Source of the DNA: a virus
Lineage: Duplodnaviria > Heunggongvirae > Uroviricota > Caudoviricetes
Reading direction: 5' to 3' (one strand)
Length of the DNA: 64,000 nt
IMG/VR virus record: IMGVR_UViG_2724679538_000004
Coordinates: 1 to 64,000 of that record
In this document: positions 34,806 to 59,032 of the stretch, piece after piece
Layout: every line of letters begins with the position of its first letter
Numbering within the stretch: the first letter of the stretch is position 1
Program-made: the position numbers and the translations under genes
The notes under the pieces: model-generated
What the model saw: only the letters and a program-made list of their open reading frames with translations
What the model was told of the DNA's origin: nothing
The model's database searches: none

Positions 34806-34885
34806 TTTTCGCGCTCGTGAGAGCCACGATGAAACCAACGCCCAAAGCGCTTAGCGCCATTGGCCAAAATCACAACAAGGAGAAA

Positions 34886-35890
34886 CACATGTCAAAGTCA
34901 TTGCTTGATTTGCTTAACAAAACTCGTGAAGACATTGCCGCCAAACGTGGCAATAAAGTTGATTTAACTCGTTTAAAAGATGGTAACAACTACATTCGTA
35001 TCTTCCCGAATAAAGACGACCCAAACGGTAAGTTCTTCCAGACTTTCGGTATGCACTACGTTAAGTATCAGAACGAGGAAGGTAAAGAAGCAACCAACGC
35101 TTATATTTGTGAGCAACATACTCACGGTCGCGCTTGTCAGCTATGCGAAATGGTGATGGAAGGTCGCGCTCGTCACAAGGGTAACAAAGCAATGGAAGAA
35201 CGCATCGGTCAAATGCGTGCTACTCCTCGCTACCTGGTAAACGGCATTCTTTCAGCTCGTGAGGATTTCGCCGATGCAGAGAAATGCCAGTTAATCGAAC
35301 TGCCGTCAACTGTATTCGATGATATCTGCAAAGCAATCACCGAAGACATCGCTGACGATATCGGCAATCCACTTAGCAAAGAGGAAGGCTACGCATTCCT
35401 GATTAAGCGTACAGGGTCTAATCGTGACACCAAATATGATGTTTCACCGAAGCGGAAAGTCTTCAAAGGCGACATCGAGGATAAATTCTGGAACACCCAA
35501 CATGATCTGATCGCATACGCAAATCAGGCTGACGAAACTCGCCTTCTGTCGACTGTTCGCACTATGGGACGTCTGATTGGTATCGCAGCACCAGCCACCG
35601 CAGCATCTGCGCCAGCCATTGCATCCACGGCAAAAGCCTCTACTGCTGCATTACCAGGATTCGGCTCTGTAACTGGTCATACGGAAGGATCAGCTACTGT
35701 AGCCACCGCTCACACTCCAAAATCCGAACCTACCAGCCTGGTAGAAGAGGAAGTCATGCGTGCAGCTGAGGCTGAGTTTAAACCAGAAACCAGCGCAGTA
35801 TCTGCGGCCGTAACAGCAAGCGAAGCCGCTGAGTCTGTGCAGGAAGACGAAGGTCTGGATGACCTACTGAGAGAACTGGACTCTCTGTAA
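34886..35890 (+). CDS. gp32-like single-stranded DNA-binding protein
   Basis: IRIFPNKDD and His/Cys cluster (HTHGRACQLC) recalling T4 gp32 zinc site; acidic C-terminal tail EDEGLDDLLRELDSL. Confidence 0.5.
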   Translation, partial: HMSKSLLDLLNKTREDIAAKRGNKVDLTRLKDGNNYIRIFPNKDDPNGKFFQTFGMHYVKYQNEEGKEATNAYICEQHTHGRACQLCEMVMEGRARHKGNKAMEERIGQMRATPRYLVNGILSAREDFADAEKCQLIELPSTVFDDICKAITEDIADDIGNPLSKEEGYAFLIKRTGSNRDTKYDVSPKRKVFKGDIEDKFWNTQHDLIAYANQADETRLLSTVRTMGRLIGIAAPATAASAPAIASTAKASTAALPGFGSVTGHTEGSATVATAHTPKSEPTSLVEEEVMRAAEAEFKPETSAVSAAVTASEAAESVQEDEGLDDLLRELDSL

Positions 35891-35906
35891 TCCCATTACG
35901 TGACCA

Positions 35907-35936
35907 GTAAGGCGTCTACGGACGCCTTACTTTTTG
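35907..35936 (+). terminator. rho-independent terminator (GGCGTC family)
   Basis: GTAAGGCGTC-tacg-GACGCCTTAC TTTTT. Confidence 0.7.
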
Positions 35937-35950
35937 GAAGGAGTATACCG

Positions 35951-36895
35951 GTGAATTATCTCTTAGTTGACGGTAACAGTCTGGGCTATTACCACCAGCA
36001 ATCTGACAAGTTACATAACGGGGAAATGGAAGTACAAGCTGCGTTCGGCTTCGTTAAAAACGTTCGTCGCTATGCCTCCATCCTCCATGCCAGACCAATG
36101 ATTCTTTGGGACGGATTTAGCGACAAGCGACGCGACTTTTACCCTGATTACAAAGCAAATCGCGACGACGATCCTGATATGAAAAAGATGAAGGAAGGCT
36201 TTGCTGTCCAGAAGCCATACATCCTCAAAATGATGACCGCGCTTGGTGTTAACCAAATCATTGCAAAAGATGCAGAAGCGGATGATCTGGCTGGGATGCT
36301 GGTATCCCGTATGGCACCGCAGCCAACCGTTGAACACATCTATCTGTTAACAGGCGATAGCGACTGGCTTCAGTTAGTTCGCGAAAACGTAAGCTGGGTA
36401 AGCCTGCGTGAAGACGCCAAAAACAAGCAGGTTAATTTTGAGCAATTTGCGGAGCTGACAGGATTCGCTACACCTCGCGCATTTTTGGAAGCAAAAGCAT
36501 TACAGGGCGATAAATCGGACAACATTAGCGGTGTTGGTGGCATTGGGACTGGCGGCGCGAAAGAGCTGCTGCATGAATGGGGAAGCGTCGCAACGATGGT
36601 ACGCGGCATCAACGACGGCTCAATCGTTGTTGACAAAGGACGCCATAAAACCGCCTTCAACAAACTAGCGAAGAATGCCTTCAACGAGAAAACAGGCTGT
36701 CGAATGCTCGAAGCGTTCAAGAGAAACATCACGCTAATGAACCTGATTGAGACGAAGTTTCCGCCGACCGAAATCGAAACAATCAAAGGCAATCGTGACG
36801 TTAAAGCATTCGAACAACTGTGCTACGAGCTGAATTTTCGTTCGTTCCTTGAAGACCTTGAAGTGTTTGTTCTTCCATTCGAAAGGTATTGCTAA
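35951..36895 (+). CDS. 5'-3' exonuclease / flap endonuclease
   Basis: LLVDGNSLGYY N-terminal motif and H3TH motif GDKSDNISGVGGIGTGGAKELL; GTG start after AAGGAG RBS. Confidence 0.8.
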   Translation: MNYLLVDGNSLGYYHQQSDKLHNGEMEVQAAFGFVKNVRRYASILHARPMILWDGFSDKRRDFYPDYKANRDDDPDMKKMKEGFAVQKPYILKMMTALGVNQIIAKDAEADDLAGMLVSRMAPQPTVEHIYLLTGDSDWLQLVRENVSWVSLREDAKNKQVNFEQFAELTGFATPRAFLEAKALQGDKSDNISGVGGIGTGGAKELLHEWGSVATMVRGINDGSIVVDKGRHKTAFNKLAKNAFNEKTGCRMLEAFKRNITLMNLIETKFPPTEIETIKGNRDVKAFEQLCYELNFRSFLEDLEVFVLPFERYC

Positions 36896-37163: not shown

Positions 37164-38237
37164 ATGGCAAAAGGAAAATCCCCACTGGCACTTGCTCTTA
37201 AAAAGAAAATCGGTAGCAACGATGAAATTCAAAAAGTAACCCATTGGATTGATACAGGCTTTCCCCCGTTAAACAAAGCTATTTCTGGTCGTTACGATGG
37301 TGGTTTCCCATGTGGTCGTATCGTCGAAGTATTTGGTCCTCCAAGTGCAGGGAAAACGTTCCTTGCAACAGCAGCGATGATCTCCGCTCAAAAACAAGAT
37401 GGTCTGGCGGTATTCCTCGATCATGAAAACAGTTTTGACGTTGGCCTGGCTGTAGCCAATGGCCTGAACGCAGATGAGGATGACGGTCAGTGGGTATACA
37501 AGCAGCCAGATACCTTCGAAGACTCTGTAGAGTTGATCGGCACTATTCTTAAATTGGTTCGTGATGAAGAGCTTATCCCTGAATCAGCGCCTATCTGTAT
37601 CGTGGCTGACTCCCTTGCGTCTATGGTTCCGAACTCCAAAGCCGAGAAGTTCGAAAAGATGGCAGAAGGCACTGCCAAAGACAAAGATCAGCTAAACATG
37701 AACGACAATACGGCACTGGCTCGTGCGACGAGTGCGAACTTCCCTACTCTGGCTTTGTGGGCACGCAAATACAACGCCTGCATCATCTTCTTGAATCAGG
37801 TTCGCACAAAAATCGGTGTAATGTTTGGCGACCCTACTACGTCACCAGGCGGCGATTCACCGAAGTTCTACGCTTCTGTACGTATCCGTCTTGGTGCATC
37901 GGTGATGAAGGATGGTAAAGAGAAGATCGGCCAGGACGTAGGCGCAGAGTGCATCAAAAACAAAGTCGCACCACCGTATGGCAAATGTACCTGGAAATTC
38001 TACTTCGATCCTACTCGTGGCCTCGACGTTATCGAATCGCTCGTCGAGTACATGCTGGAAGAAGGATACCTGCCAAAGAACGCCAGCGGGCGAGTTGAAA
38101 TTGGTGACAAGAAATACACCAAATCGCAGATCGTCGAGATGTATCGGGAGAAGCCATTAGCAGAAATCATTTCTGCGTTACAGGCGATAGATGACCGACG
38201 AGAGAAGACATCACCAACAGAAGAACTAGAAGATTAA
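37164..38237 (+). CDS. recA: RecA-like recombinase
   Basis: Walker A GPPSAGKT; FLNQVRTKIGVMFGDPTTSPGG..KFYASVR matches RecA core. Confidence 0.85.
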   Translation: MAKGKSPLALALKKKIGSNDEIQKVTHWIDTGFPPLNKAISGRYDGGFPCGRIVEVFGPPSAGKTFLATAAMISAQKQDGLAVFLDHENSFDVGLAVANGLNADEDDGQWVYKQPDTFEDSVELIGTILKLVRDEELIPESAPICIVADSLASMVPNSKAEKFEKMAEGTAKDKDQLNMNDNTALARATSANFPTLALWARKYNACIIFLNQVRTKIGVMFGDPTTSPGGDSPKFYASVRIRLGASVMKDGKEKIGQDVGAECIKNKVAPPYGKCTWKFYFDPTRGLDVIESLVEYMLEEGYLPKNASGRVEIGDKKYTKSQIVEMYREKPLAEIISALQAIDDRREKTSPTEELED

Positions 38238-40432: not shown

Positions 40433-40768
40433 GTGAAGGCGATAACTTTCTCACTAGTGTTTCTATCATCTTTGGTAATGGCGGATACCTCTGTTTATGA
40501 GTGCGATATGTCAGTTGCCAGTATCAACAAAGGCGCGATCACCAACATCACAAAGGCGCCATATGGCGCAATGGTAGTGGACAGCGGTGACCAGTTTTAC
40601 GTCCTTCGTGATGATCGTGTTTTGTCATCTCCTCATCTTTCGGATCGGAATGGCAAACTGACCGGAGTAGGAGAAGACCACTTCACATACAACAAATACC
40701 AGGGCTTTTATGGCATTCACGCTTCTACAAAAAGCTACCTTTTCGATGACTGCAAGGAGATTGGATAA
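40433..40768 (+). CDS. hypothetical secreted protein
   Basis: N-terminal signal peptide MKAITFSLVFLSSLVMA. Confidence 0.45.
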   Translation: MKAITFSLVFLSSLVMADTSVYECDMSVASINKGAITNITKAPYGAMVVDSGDQFYVLRDDRVLSSPHLSDRNGKLTGVGEDHFTYNKYQGFYGIHASTKSYLFDDCKEIG

Positions 40769-40980
40769 TGGCGGTGACACTGGCAGGTCTGGAAATCGAG
40801 AAAACAAGCGGATACTGGCGTTCCAAAGGATTCAAAAAAGCCAGCATACAAGATCGGCTAGAGCGTGAAGATGGATACATCATCCACCAGCGCAAGGAGT
40901 GGAGAATGGTTGATCCTGAGACTGGTAAGCTCGCAACGAAGGCTCAGACACTCTGGGGTTTATTGAAGAAAATTCACTGA
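40768..40980 (+). CDS. hypothetical protein
   Basis: 70 aa, ATG overlaps upstream stop. Confidence 0.35.
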   Translation: MAVTLAGLEIEKTSGYWRSKGFKKASIQDRLEREDGYIIHQRKEWRMVDPETGKLATKAQTLWGLLKKIH

Positions 40981-40988
40981 TAACACCA

Positions 40989-41468
40989 ACCACTGCGGTG
41001 AGTAGTCTGCTCACCGCATTCGTATCCAGCTCATTATCCACTGTAGTCAGTAACAAAACCTTCCTACATATCTGCTAACCACTGTAGCGAGTAGACAGCC
41101 TTTCATTCGCATCAAACAACCACTATGGTGAGTATTGGAGTGAGATGTCCAGCGGGTATCCACTATGGTGAGTAAGCCTTTGCTGTTTTCAGTGGATATC
41201 CACTCGCCACAGTGGATACGCTCAAAGATGAGGGCGACAACAACCACTATAGACAGTAAATTTTCCAAGATACCCAGTGACCACTAACCTCGCAGCCCTT
41301 GTTTCATCAGTGTTAGTGATCACTAACATTTAATTCAGTATTTGCATTCTACTGCCTACAGTGGTTATCAACAGATAACGATACTCACTATAGTGGATAG
41401 CGAATTACAGATATAAGTAAGGCTCACTACAGTGGATAGTGAGCCTTACTACTAACTACAGTGGTTGG
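40989..41468. repeat. iteron array downstream of repA (incA-like copy-control locus)
   Basis: About 11 copies of CCACT(A/G)(T/C)(A/G)GTG(A/G)GTA-type repeats, several in inverted pairs. Confidence 0.7.
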
Positions 41469-41469
41469 G

Positions 41470-42525
41470 CTATTTGCGAGTCTTTGCCTTGCGCAACTCT
41501 TCGAGAAGCGCCAGTTCTTCTTTACTCAACATGACCATTTTGCCTTCTTTTTCGTCAGGCGCAACGTCGATAATGTCATCTTGATTCTCATCTGGGAGGC
41601 TATATTCCGTCTCATCATTATCGATTTTTGTTGATATTTGTGCCTGGCGTAACTTTGGCCGCCTATAGTGGATGACGAAGTAGACCGAGTTTCCGCGCTT
41701 AACTTCCGTGTAATCGAGATATCCTATCTCTCGCAGCTGTTCCATAGCCTTTCTTACCGTCGCATTCTGAGTAATAGTGCGACTTGTCAGATTAAGTCTG
41801 GCGCGTAAACGGGCTAGTGATATTGGTGCCGGATCAGGCGGCAAACTTTCAATAAAAGTATAAAGCGCCTGAGCGGATTCTTTTCTTGAGAGTTCGTTTA
41901 TAGCCCGGAGTTGCAGAAGAACCTTTTTGTCGAACTGGTAGAGTTCGAAAATCTTGGGATCTGCTTTCAGTTCGACCGTATCGTGCTTGACACTATATTT
42001 TGCCGTTTGCACAAGATGCGTTACGTAAAACTCATCAGAGCCTTTGCTACGGAACGAGATGGTATTTGTGGCAATACGGCTTAGCGAACTGTCCAGGCGT
42101 TTGCGTAACTTCGCTGATGACCTGGCGGTCGGAATGCCACACAGCCTTACAAACTCAACGAACGGCAACGTGACGGTATCGCCAACGACCTTGTGTTTGG
42201 CAAACGCGTGGATTATTCCCACCCACGTTTTAAAGTCGTTATCCATATCAAGCCGAAGGCCAGAGATCCTTATGTCTTCGTACCCTTCTGCTTTTGCCAG
42301 AGACAGCTGTTTGAGTTCAGCAGAGGCATCCATAGAGACCATTTGCCCCTTTCTTCCTCTGGATGTCGATTTCAGCGTCGGAACGAAGAGGCCCAGACGC
42401 ATCAAAGCAACAGGCTGAACAGTGTTATTAGTGTTAGGAACCAACGTAACAACTTCGCCTGTCTTTTTATCTGTTTCTGAAAATGCTTCAACGATCGCTA
42501 TGTTTTTATTGCCGTTTTCGCTCAT
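41470..42525 (-). CDS. repA: iteron-binding plasmid replication initiator (RepA/Rep_3-like)
   Basis: 351 aa, flanked on both sides by arrays of its presumptive binding repeats; C-terminal winged-helix-like region. Confidence 0.7.
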
Positions 42526-42569
42526 TCCAAATGTCTCTTGTTATTCGACGGCTTTGGTGGCCTTTGCTG

Positions 42570-42691
42570 ATTACAGTGGATAGTAGCACTCATCACAGCG
42601 GTTATCCTACCGTCTATAGTGGTTTTTCTCCTCTCTATAGTGGTTGCTTTGCTCCCTATAGTGGATTATTTGCTCTCTATAGTGGATATCG
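42570..42691. repeat. iteron array upstream of repA (about 6 copies, 21-22 bp phasing)
   Basis: CTCTATAGTGG(A/T)T repeated at helical spacing. Confidence 0.8.
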
Positions 42692-42799
42692 ATCATGTCT
42701 GAAGGCAGATGGCACAACGGTTTGAGGTGGGCGGGGATCTTATTGGGTCTTTATGGGTCTCTTTGGTTCTCTTTGTGATCTGAATTACTGGATCGGGCC

Positions 42800-42808
42800 T
42801 GTGGATAA
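42800..42808. promoter_or_regulatory. DnaA box
   Basis: TGTGGATAA (reverse complement of TTATCCACA) between iteron arrays, next to AT-rich stretch. Confidence 0.6.
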
Positions 42809-42967
42809 AAATCAGAGGATTACAAGAACAGGTAACTCTACTCTTCTGTGGATATTTAAGGACATAAGAATCATGACTAAGAGTAGAGTTTAAAATATAT
42901 CTATGTGTATCAGTATGTTAATGAAGAATTAAGTCATTAAGTTATCCATAAAAGACAATGTGCTCTA

Positions 42968-43072
42968 CTCTCTACAGTGGATATATACAGCTCTCCAGAG
43001 TGGTTGTTTTACTCTTCATAGCGGTTATTCTGCTCTCTACAGAGGTTACTTTGCTCTCCATAGTGGATGGCA
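42968..43072. repeat. iteron array (5 copies, 22-bp phasing)
   Basis: CTCTACAGTGGAT, CTCCAGAGTGGTT, CTTCATAGCGGTT, CTCTACAGAGGTT, CTCCATAGTGGAT. Confidence 0.8.
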
Positions 43073-43109
43073 ACACCCTTTCAGACCAGTAACCGCAACG
43101 CCTGGAGGC

Positions 43110-43181
43110 GATCGGGGATCTCTTTGGATCTTCTGTTTGATCTTACTTGGGATCTCTTATTTGGATCTATCCAGTGGATAA
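43110..43181. other. GATC-bearing direct repeats plus DnaA-box-like site (origin-type element)
   Basis: Five (T)TGGATCT-like units each with GATC; AGTGGATAA at 43173-43181. Confidence 0.55.
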
Positions 43182-43268
43182 CTGGGATAAGTAAAACAGG
43201 CAAATGCAGATTAAGGTATGCCTAATGAGTTATCGTAGCATCGGCTAATAACTACTGAAAAAACGATT

Positions 43269-43913
43269 ATGGATCTAAAACGCACGCGCTGGGTTCGTCG
43301 TCTTGAGGACGGCTCCTACACCATCGAATCAAATTCCAACCTGAATAAGCAGAAGTTACTTTGTGATATCTGCGGTATAGCAGCGAAGTGCCCGATCTAC
43401 GAAACCAGAATTAAACTTGATAAGGCTGGTGTGAACTTTCATTTGAATAGTTGTATCAGGTACGTTCCATTGCTCGCATTTCGTAAACCGATCATCGGAT
43501 TGGATGCGCCCTACTTCAACACACTCCGTTCAGGAGTAACGTGGCGAGATCGTTTATCACCAGACAAACTGATTTGCCTTGTATCCGCAGATACAGGAAA
43601 AATCATCCGTTTTGGGAAAGTAGACAAGGTTTACTCAGGCCCAGTTGACGAGATGTTGCGGAAACACAGCCGGTTTAATCACCTCTGCATGGGTGGTGAG
43701 AAAATCGAGAAAGTTGAAGAAGTGATCCGCAAATCCTACGGACACTTCCTGACCAAAGATAGCCTGCTCACTGCAATCTACATCAGACATGTAAAACGTG
43801 AGTTCGACCTTGAATACCATAGCGAAGAAGAACTGAACCTTGTCGATCCACGTCCTAAAGCTGGCGTCATAAACATAAACGCAGCGCGTAAAAAGCCCAC
43901 TGACGCACTGTAA
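43269..43913 (+). CDS. hypothetical protein
   Basis: 214-aa ORF. Confidence 0.45.
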   Translation: MDLKRTRWVRRLEDGSYTIESNSNLNKQKLLCDICGIAAKCPIYETRIKLDKAGVNFHLNSCIRYVPLLAFRKPIIGLDAPYFNTLRSGVTWRDRLSPDKLICLVSADTGKIIRFGKVDKVYSGPVDEMLRKHSRFNHLCMGGEKIEKVEEVIRKSYGHFLTKDSLLTAIYIRHVKREFDLEYHSEEELNLVDPRPKAGVININAARKKPTDAL

Positions 43914-58438: not shown

Positions 58439-59032
58439 ATGATAGCGGCTGAGAAAATTAAAAAACGAGAGCGTGACCCTTCTCTTAGAGATCTATGGCG
58501 CACACCTCAATGGTTGTTTAACGCTATCCAGAAATACTTAGGTGTTCAATTCGATGTGGACGTTGCCTGCAACAAAGACAACGCTCTTCTTGCAAATTAC
58601 ATAGGCGTGGAGCGTGATGCTTTGAAAAGCAACTGGGGAGAACCGGGCACTATAGCATTCCTAAACCCGCCCTACTCGAAAATTTCCCCGTGGATCGAGG
58701 CCGCAATACGCGAACAAGCACGAGGTGTCACTACAGTTATGCTTATACCACAATCCCTTGATACAAAATGGTATGAGCGGGCCACTGAGCACGCAAACGA
58801 AACGGTTATTCTGTCTGGAGGTCGTGTGGCTTTCGTGGAACCAGACGTTAATTTGGGATTTGTGGAGGTAAACATTAACCCTGGTGGAAGTATGCTTCTG
58901 ATTTTTAGAGGCTTTTGTCAGGGAGCTGGACACACGATTAGAAAAATTCCTCTGGCGGTGTTGAAACAGCTGGGGGGTTATGATCCTGCCAATGTTTCCA
59001 GAAAGAAAAGAACATACAAGAAGGCAGCTTAA
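58439..59032 (+). CDS. DNA N6-adenine methyltransferase (phage Dam-type)
   Basis: Catalytic NPPY motif (FLNPPYS); 197 aa. Confidence 0.75.
   Translation: MIAAEKIKKRERDPSLRDLWRTPQWLFNAIQKYLGVQFDVDVACNKDNALLANYIGVERDALKSNWGEPGTIAFLNPPYSKISPWIEAAIREQARGVTTVMLIPQSLDTKWYERATEHANETVILSGGRVAFVEPDVNLGFVEVNINPGGSMLLIFRGFCQGAGHTIRKIPLAVLKQLGGYDPANVSRKKRTYKKAA

Follow-up and report, generated by a model that had tools for sequence, protein, structure and literature searches.

Among the closest described relatives of the locus analyzed here are the plasmid replicon of phage P1 and the RepFIB replicons of F-type plasmids. In the curated P1 record an incA locus with 9 iterons, repA and an incC locus with 5 iterons spaced 21-22 bp apart are accompanied by five Dam sites and a DnaA site. 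In RepFIB replicons rep is flanked by origin iterons upstream and control iterons downstream, with a DnaA site, and the control exerted by the downstream iterons is consistent with handcuffing (PMC11983097). We examined a locus of this kind around repA in a 64-kb stretch of viral DNA (positions 1 to 64,000 of IMG/VR record IMGVR_UViG_2724679538_000004, hereafter the window). The region is very probably the replicon with which an SSU5-type phage-plasmid maintains itself as a plasmid (plasmid prophage), and it belongs to the iteron-controlled theta replicons of the RepFIB/P1 family. This kind of replicon is already known: in Cyrano/pLF82, SSU5, pHCM2 and pMT1, the plague plasmid, it is typed as IncFIB. 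For pMT1, P1/P7-like replication functions were reportedly noted in the sequence papers of 1998 (Lindler et al.; Hu et al.). A search of the open-access literature, which did not extend to those 1998 papers, found nothing linking iterons with pHCM2 or pMT1. The P1/RepFIB architecture takes a form here that seems not to have been described, with a conserved doubled oriR unit and asymmetric Dam-site content.

The two arrays of iterons upstream of repA, which we call proximal and distal by their position relative to that gene, are parts of a tandem duplication of a whole oriR-like unit, a feature overlooked in a preliminary description of the window that had been made from the sequence alone. Both units are collinear, each consisting of iterons, a spacer starting with CAACG, CGGGGATCT, several successive heptamers, TGGATC and a DnaA box of the form CC(T/A)GTGGATAA, and they lie ~400 bp apart. 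In the proximal unit (coordinates of all features are collected in Table 1) lies the window's one perfect TTATNCACA, namely TGTGGATAA at 42800-42808, and relatives carry TTATACACA at this position, likewise a perfect match. In the distal unit the first DnaA box, AGTGGATAA at 43173-43181, has one mismatch to the consensus and is identical to one of the two boxes of P1; in SSU5, pMT1 and pHCM2 this box is a perfect TTATTCACA. The six GATC sites of the distal unit fall within 58 bp (43110-43167) and form the sole dense cluster in the 64 kb, with a Poisson probability of ~5e-7 per 70-bp window, whereas only three of the six proximal heptamers have kept GATC (42736, 42777 and 42791). The perfect DnaA box, the second DnaA-box-like site and the GATC-bearing TGGATCT-like repeats had all been pointed out in the preliminary description, and all three hold up.

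The iterons are ~20 bp long with the core CTAYAGTGGWT. Exact matches to TAYAGTGGWT occur 14 times in the window, all of them within 41036-42982, and a position weight matrix (PWM) scan retrieved 24 iteron copies scoring 13-31, with the best score elsewhere in the window below 10. When a PWM was built from the 12 downstream copies alone, all 11 upstream copies scored 16-25 (the 99.9th percentile of background being 3.3), and thus the three arrays share one motif. The three repA-flanking arrays of the preliminary description are therefore confirmed, with boundaries that move by a few bases. Its account of the downstream array as about 11 copies, some in inverted pairs as in P1 incA, stands as regards the inverted pairs and the use of both strands but not the count, which is 12; the spacing there is irregular, ranging from 20 to 108 bp. 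Upstream, the numbers of 6 and 5 copies and their phasing at 21-22 bp were correct except that the distal array also has one 23-bp step. Deviant iterons (CCAGAGTGG, CATAGCGG and TACAGAGG) are commoner in the distal array, and a comparison of upstream sequences by eye found them conserved within the SSU5 clade. A graded model of RepA affinity, with strong proximal and weak distal iterons, was considered and discarded because the asymmetry is absent in Pantoea L15.

The initiator itself places the locus in a known family. RepA, encoded where the preliminary description had put it, matches Pfam Rep3_N (WH1, PF01051) with 42.4 bits (gathering cut-off 22.4) and Rep3_C (WH2, PF21205) with 22.6 bits (gathering cut-off 21.1), and it belongs to the Rep_3 (winged-helix WH1-WH2) iteron initiators. 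Searches with RepA against solved structures and NCBIfam gave no match. Identity to P1 RepA is 49% over P1 residues 21-283 (E = 5e-93), with a range of 47.5-49% for P1/P7 RepA over nearly the whole P1 protein. Outside its own clade the closest RepA proteins are those of the classical IncFIB (RepFIB) replicons of F, P307, pO157 and pUTI89, at 60-65% identity over ~94% of the protein. Since the closest initiators are of this classical IncFIB type and MOB-suite types the near-identical plasmid records as IncFIB, "RepFIB/P1 family" is a more exact label than the P1-type originally proposed. That original proposal, a P1-type iteron replicon with an incA-like array, a DnaA box and Dam-site heptamers, is nevertheless well supported by the RepA homology, the order of the parts and the alignment of the distal core to P1 oriR.

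Two observations concern the 3' part of repA. Residues 294-351 of RepA (41470-41647) form a 58-residue C-terminal tail that is missing from P1 RepA and in which a variable acidic/proline-rich linker leads into a 22-residue end that is strongly conserved in SSU5, pMT1 and pHCM2; in Pfam the tail drew only T4_y05I_C, below threshold. Near the point where P1 RepA ends there is also an intragenic iteron-like site, which scores 14.9 with the independent, downstream-only PWM and is found at the same position in all relatives. The RepFIB-type replicon of a P1-like phage likewise has an intragenic iteron (1867-1882 of that locus).

The order of parts in the window equals that of P1: a bidirectional control array, repA, 5-6 iterons at 21 bp, a GC spacer, heptamers and DnaA boxes. 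The distal heptamer/DnaA core aligns base for base with P1 oriR, the window's TTGGATCTATCCAGTGGATAA being the same string in P1, and P1 reads TTGGATCTATCCAGTGGATAATGTGGATAAGTGAAAAAC where the window reads TTGGATCTATCCAGTGGATAACTGGGATAAGTAAAACAG. The control arrays are also oriented alike. In P1 incA, as read from the P1 sequence, the 3 copies nearest repA are oriented as the origin iterons are and the 6 distal copies are inverted; in the window the 4 copies nearest repA point as the origin iterons do and most of the distal ones are inverted. The differences are that P1 has one origin unit, 9 control iterons and no RepA tail, whereas the window has two units, 12 control iterons and the 58-aa tail, and that the P1 partition genes are not adjacent to the window's replicon. 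The iteron sequences are moreover unrelated, CTAYAGTGGWT in the window compared with the 19-mer GATGTGTGCTGGAGGGAAA in P1, so that the window lacks the hallmark of P1 incompatibility specificity. The RepFIB plasmid pUTI89 resembles the window in having an upstream cluster of 5 GATC sites and a perfect DnaA box, but it has one upstream unit and an iteron core of the ACAGTTTAT type, and the window does not carry the iterons of classical IncFIB (F/P307) specificity either. Because its iterons are unrelated to those of P1 and pUTI89, the replicon should work like P1 and RepFIB replicons but with an incompatibility specificity of its own, and the MOB-suite typing as IncFIB despite the differing iterons rests on RepA similarity.

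Across its 2.4 kb the region matches Escherichia phage Cyrano, which is the pLF82 phage-plasmid of E. coli LF82, with 99% identity, and it matches dozens of ~108-kb plasmids from E. coli, E. albertii and Shigella equally well; its identity to Salmonella phage SSU5 is 83%. The element also occurs in 335 PLSDB plasmids. Of 5,426 complete E. coli genomes, 91 carry the doubled origin, with 95-99% identity and always on plasmids. Cyrano is maintained at ~5.5 copies per chromosome (PMC9928086). In the records of near-identical elements repA is the sole annotated feature of the region; the origin is unmarked in every annotated record inspected, and none of the 8 E. coli matches listed has any annotation beneath the doubled origin.

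The doubling is not confined to this lineage. Y. pestis pMT1, S. Typhi pHCM2, SSU5, Enterobacter, Citrobacter and a divergent E. coli lineage all have the complete doubled region (~81% identity, 98% coverage). In pMT1, pHCM2 and SSU5 the replicon is the same one, with RepA ~91% identical and the whole 743-bp doubled origin ~81% identical and collinear; these three differ from the Cyrano lineage in that only the latter has an AT-rich spacer between the units and in which DnaA box is the perfect one. Non-phage plasmids have the doubled unit as well, namely Pantoea agglomerans pPagL15_2 together with Rahnella aceris pPlas1 and Pantoea sp. BRR-3P, whose RepA proteins are 76.5% and 69.6% identical, respectively. 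A single unit is present in P1, the RepFIB-type replicon of P1-like phages, pUTI89, Salmonella FIB, Pantoea At-9b and Klebsiella FIB(K), and also in the SSU5-like phage-plasmids of Klebsiella and E. coli D9. This distribution of doubled and single states suggests that the doubling marks one RepFIB sub-branch and is older than the SSU5 clade. No variant lacking either unit was seen: in the 335 plasmid records the best match spans at least 80% of the region, and the same is true of 90 out of the 91 E. coli genomes with the element.

We compared the window with five relatives, using the third-codon positions of repA (65% identity) as a near-neutral yardstick. As listed in Table 1, the inter-unit spacer and the leader of the ASCH gene are neutral by this measure, while both units evolve far slower than neutral sites. 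Constraint acts on both units, which differ SYSTEMATICALLY. Across the five doubled lineages, 5-6 GATC sites and the P1-like tandem DnaA boxes persist in the distal unit, and in all five GATC has been replaced at the inner heptamers of the proximal unit. Cyrano, pMT1 and Rahnella have AGAACC and AGACCC instead, Pantoea L15 has AGTTCC, and Pantoea BRR has AGACCC and TGTTCC; across the SSU5 clade the non-GATC variants are invariant. This pattern argues that the loss of proximal GATC is a conserved divergence and not decay.

Based on P1 and RepFIB, we propose that RepA monomers would fill the phased iterons and host DnaA would bind the boxes, whereupon the Dam-methylated heptamer block would open, its methylation being required. 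After firing, SeqA would sequester the hemimethylated origin, RepA on the downstream array would handcuff the origin arrays and so keep copy number low, and RepA bound beside its own gene would repress repA. For the doubling we tentatively favor one ancient duplication followed by a division of labor between the units. The distal unit would be the main initiation site, as all of its GATC heptamers and its tandem DnaA boxes are retained throughout the lineages. The proximal unit, which adjoins repA and has lost the inner-heptamer GATC in every lineage, may serve mainly as repA operator/promoter and as an extra platform for binding of RepA and DnaA and possibly of integration host factor (IHF). 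With regard to IHF, a match adjoining the proximal DnaA box hints at a candidate site; it is one of 7 WATCARNNNNTTR matches in the 64 kb, and the consensus is preserved in relatives as AATCAGGTAATTG.

Several points weigh against this account. RepA binding, the dependence on DnaA, Dam and SeqA, the melting site and handcuffing are all carried over from what holds for P1 and RepFIB. That the proximal array acts as an operator is assumed from where it lies, and a sigma-70 scan for a repA promoter gave only weak matches, none of them conserved: the best (42921-42894, 10/12) falls in the non-conserved spacer, and one within the proximal array (42692-42665) is not conserved in pMT1. Outside the iterons the similarity of one unit to the other has z = 7.8 against shuffles, which is moderate evidence when taken alone, as one random segment of the window tied that score. 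GC skew tracks the orientation of the genes, does not switch at the replicon and is uninformative on the origin. Finally, conservation of the proximal heptamer/DnaA block is no lower than that of its distal counterpart (90% versus 79%), and the proximal block contains the better DnaA box of the window; both points fit the proximal unit still being an origin. If it were the real origin, the distal unit would be an upstream control element, either a second handcuffing array or a regulator of the ASCH gene, and the proximal unit would hold the ancestral position beside repA that the origin has in every single-unit relative; its high conservation, its perfect DnaA box here and in pMT1, and the larger number of deviant iterons in the distal array agree with this. 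We nevertheless consider it rather unlikely, since the complete P1-like core (5-6 GATC and tandem boxes) stays with the distal unit in five lineages and since in P1 Dam methylation of the heptamers is required for origin function. Regulation of the ASCH gene is further disfavored by the Pantoea and Rahnella plasmids, in which the distal unit is present with no annotated gene at the ASCH position and so is not tied to that gene.

Both oriR-like units have all the parts and are under purifying selection, with the proximal core the more conserved, which could also mean that both of them fire, alternately or under different conditions. The perfect DnaA box and adjoining conserved IHF-like site of the proximal unit would fit such an arrangement, as would a GATC loss that is position-specific and conserved instead of random; for example, the GATC-rich distal unit could be under Dam/SeqA sequestration with the GATC-poor proximal unit largely escaping it. 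Two working origins are possible in our view but doubtful: firing at either unit is something we infer, one unit suffices in the single-unit relatives, and in all of these the repA-adjacent iterons overlap the promoter region, so a regulatory role would suffice to explain the proximal conservation. The more specific idea of a two-origin device, in which a Dam/SeqA-gated distal unit with 6 GATC is paired with a derived proximal unit that has shed most sequestration sites, strikes us as improbable. If it were true, the same RepA would drive two regimes, for example timed maintenance as opposed to less restrained replication after infection or induction, and the arrangement would have been kept since before SSU5 phage-plasmids and Pantoea/Rahnella megaplasmids split. 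The preliminary description had instead linked a Dam-type methyltransferase gene of the window to methylation-controlled initiation, which amounts to a single extended origin governed by the phage's own predicted enzyme. The gene is indeed present as a PF05869 (Dam) family member and the GATC cluster at the origin is dense, but like clusters are found equally in the replicons of non-phage relatives (Pantoea, Rahnella, pUTI89, Salmonella FIB and Klebsiella FIB(K)), whose enterobacterial hosts encode their own Dam. The phage gene is therefore not needed to explain the GATC sites or to make the replicon model work. In Y. pestis host Dam already methylates >99% of GATC, pMT1 included, and none of the four reported exceptions lies at the replicon (PMC13321490). 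We thus hold control by the phage enzyme to be very unlikely. That the repeats have nothing to do with replication, being chance repeats, coding repeats or an array for some other binding protein, can be practically dismissed: the motif is restricted to the flanks of a RepA homologue, the repeats are phased at two helical turns, the layout follows P1 feature for feature, and an Rfam scan of 40500-43600 for antisense or control RNA returned nothing relevant, with no match in the repeat region.

A conserved pair of P1-like units with a reproducible difference in Dam sites offers a natural system in which to study initiation as opposed to autoregulation and sequestration in iteron origins. The anatomy of the replicon also shows exactly where curing or incompatibility cassettes could be aimed at plasmids of the pMT1/pHCM2 type; in such cassettes the downstream array is likely to be the effective part, as work on RepFIB suggests (PMC11983097).

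Table 1. Features of the replicon and the phage Dam gene, in window coordinates, with identity to five relatives where calculated.
Feature	Position	Strand	Description and basis	Identity to relatives
Downstream control array (incA-like)	40985-41469	both	12 iterons; PWM scans and inverted pairs; minus-strand starts (6) 40985, 41033, 41074, 41115, 41155, 41239; plus-strand starts (6) 41178, 41198, 41347, 41379, 41418, 41447	
repA	41470-42525	-	Open reading frame, 351 aa; WH1 and WH2 domains homologous to P1/RepFIB RepA	
Intragenic iteron-like site	41654-41676	+	3' part of repA, codons VIHYRR; PWM score 20.7	
Proximal upstream array (iterons)	42562-42690	+	6 iterons in one orientation, phased 21-22 bp; PWM; starts 42562, 42584, 42605, 42626, 42647, 42668 (spacing 22, 21, 21, 21, 21)	90%
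Proximal heptamer block	42732-42797		GGGATCT, GGGTCT, GGGTCT, GGTTCT, GTGATCT, TGGATCG	
Proximal DnaA box	42800-42808	-	TTATCCACA; consensus scan	
Proximal heptamer/DnaA block				90%
IHF-like site	42810-42822	+	AATCAGAGGATTA; adjoins proximal DnaA box	
Inter-unit spacer	42823-42962		~30% GC in window; includes AT-rich stretch	63%
Distal upstream array (iterons)	42963-43071	+	5 iterons phased 21-23 bp, orientation as proximal array; PWM; starts 42963, 42986, 43007, 43028, 43049 (spacing 23, 21, 21, 21)	86%
Distal GC-rich spacer	43072-43109		58% GC; position of P1 oriR spacer	84%
Distal Dam-site block	43110-43170		6 GATC (43110, 43117, 43127, 43139, 43151, 43164), five in NGGATCT-type heptamers	
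Distal tandem DnaA-box pair	43173-43190	-	AGTGGATAA, then degenerate CTGGGATAA	
Distal heptamer/DnaA block				79%
ASCH-gene leader				64%
Dam-family methyltransferase (phage)	58439-59032	+	Pfam PF05869 (Dam), E = 9e-38	

Two further candidate elements within the replicon were set aside. The preliminary description had noted an AT-rich stretch at about 42860-42960, and this stretch does have 27% GC compared with 45% for the window; in relatives, however, the inter-unit spacer has 40-44% GC and 63% identity, which is the neutral level. As the spacer is AT-rich in the Cyrano lineage only and evolves neutrally, we rejected it as an unwinding element and do not count it as a conserved origin part. 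Likewise, the 108-bp gap of the downstream array contains (within 41277-41327) a perfect 16-bp palindrome, GTTAGTGATCACTAAC at 41312-41327, with GATC at its center. Relatives have two direct copies of ACCACTAAC at this position, and a similar element is found in the Klebsiella relative despite its differing iterons. Because relatives have this direct repeat, the palindrome is probably accidental and was dropped as an operator candidate. We also note that the iteron core AGTGGATA(A) (e.g. 41034-41042) is one mismatch away from the DnaA box TGTGGATAA, and that TTATCCACT occurs within several iterons.

The replicon is bracketed by genes for a 70-aa protein (40768-40980), annotated as "P1 Cra" or "Cre-associated" in relatives, and a 214-aa ASCH-domain protein (43269-43913); Pfam and NCBIfam searches with the window's proteins gave no match for these two neighbors. 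Upstream lie genes for a gp32-like single-stranded DNA-binding protein (34817-35890), a 5'-3' exonuclease (35900-36895) and a RecA of 357 aa (37164-38237). The RecA coding sequence of Cyrano and pEHP91H1-1 is 2,340 bp long, and RefSeq labels it a LAGLIDADG homing endonuclease; the window's recA appears to be free of the LAGLIDADG insertion.

Klebsiella-type phage-plasmids have the same two neighbors around a different replicon. In the SSU5-like elements of Klebsiella (pKPHS1-type) and E. coli D9 the genomic position and the order of a Cra-like gene, rep and the ASCH gene are the same, but there is a single origin unit with different iterons (ACCGCTGACAGCATA) and RepA is only ~50% identical. 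Nucleotide identity to these elements, at 82%, is seen only from the distal heptamers rightwards, through the heptamers, DnaA boxes and ASCH leader (72-83% for window 43107-43236 compared with Klebsiella locus 2501-2630 and D9 locus 2501-2655). With identity confined to this part and with repA and the iterons differing, it seems that an exchange at the conserved origin core has replaced the specificity module (repA plus iterons). The annotated "RepB family" coding sequences of the Klebsiella (locus 1244-2461) and D9 (1246-2460) elements run ~120 bp upstream over five origin iterons, and RepA homology together with an in-frame ATG at ~2342 suggests that their annotated starts are wrong.

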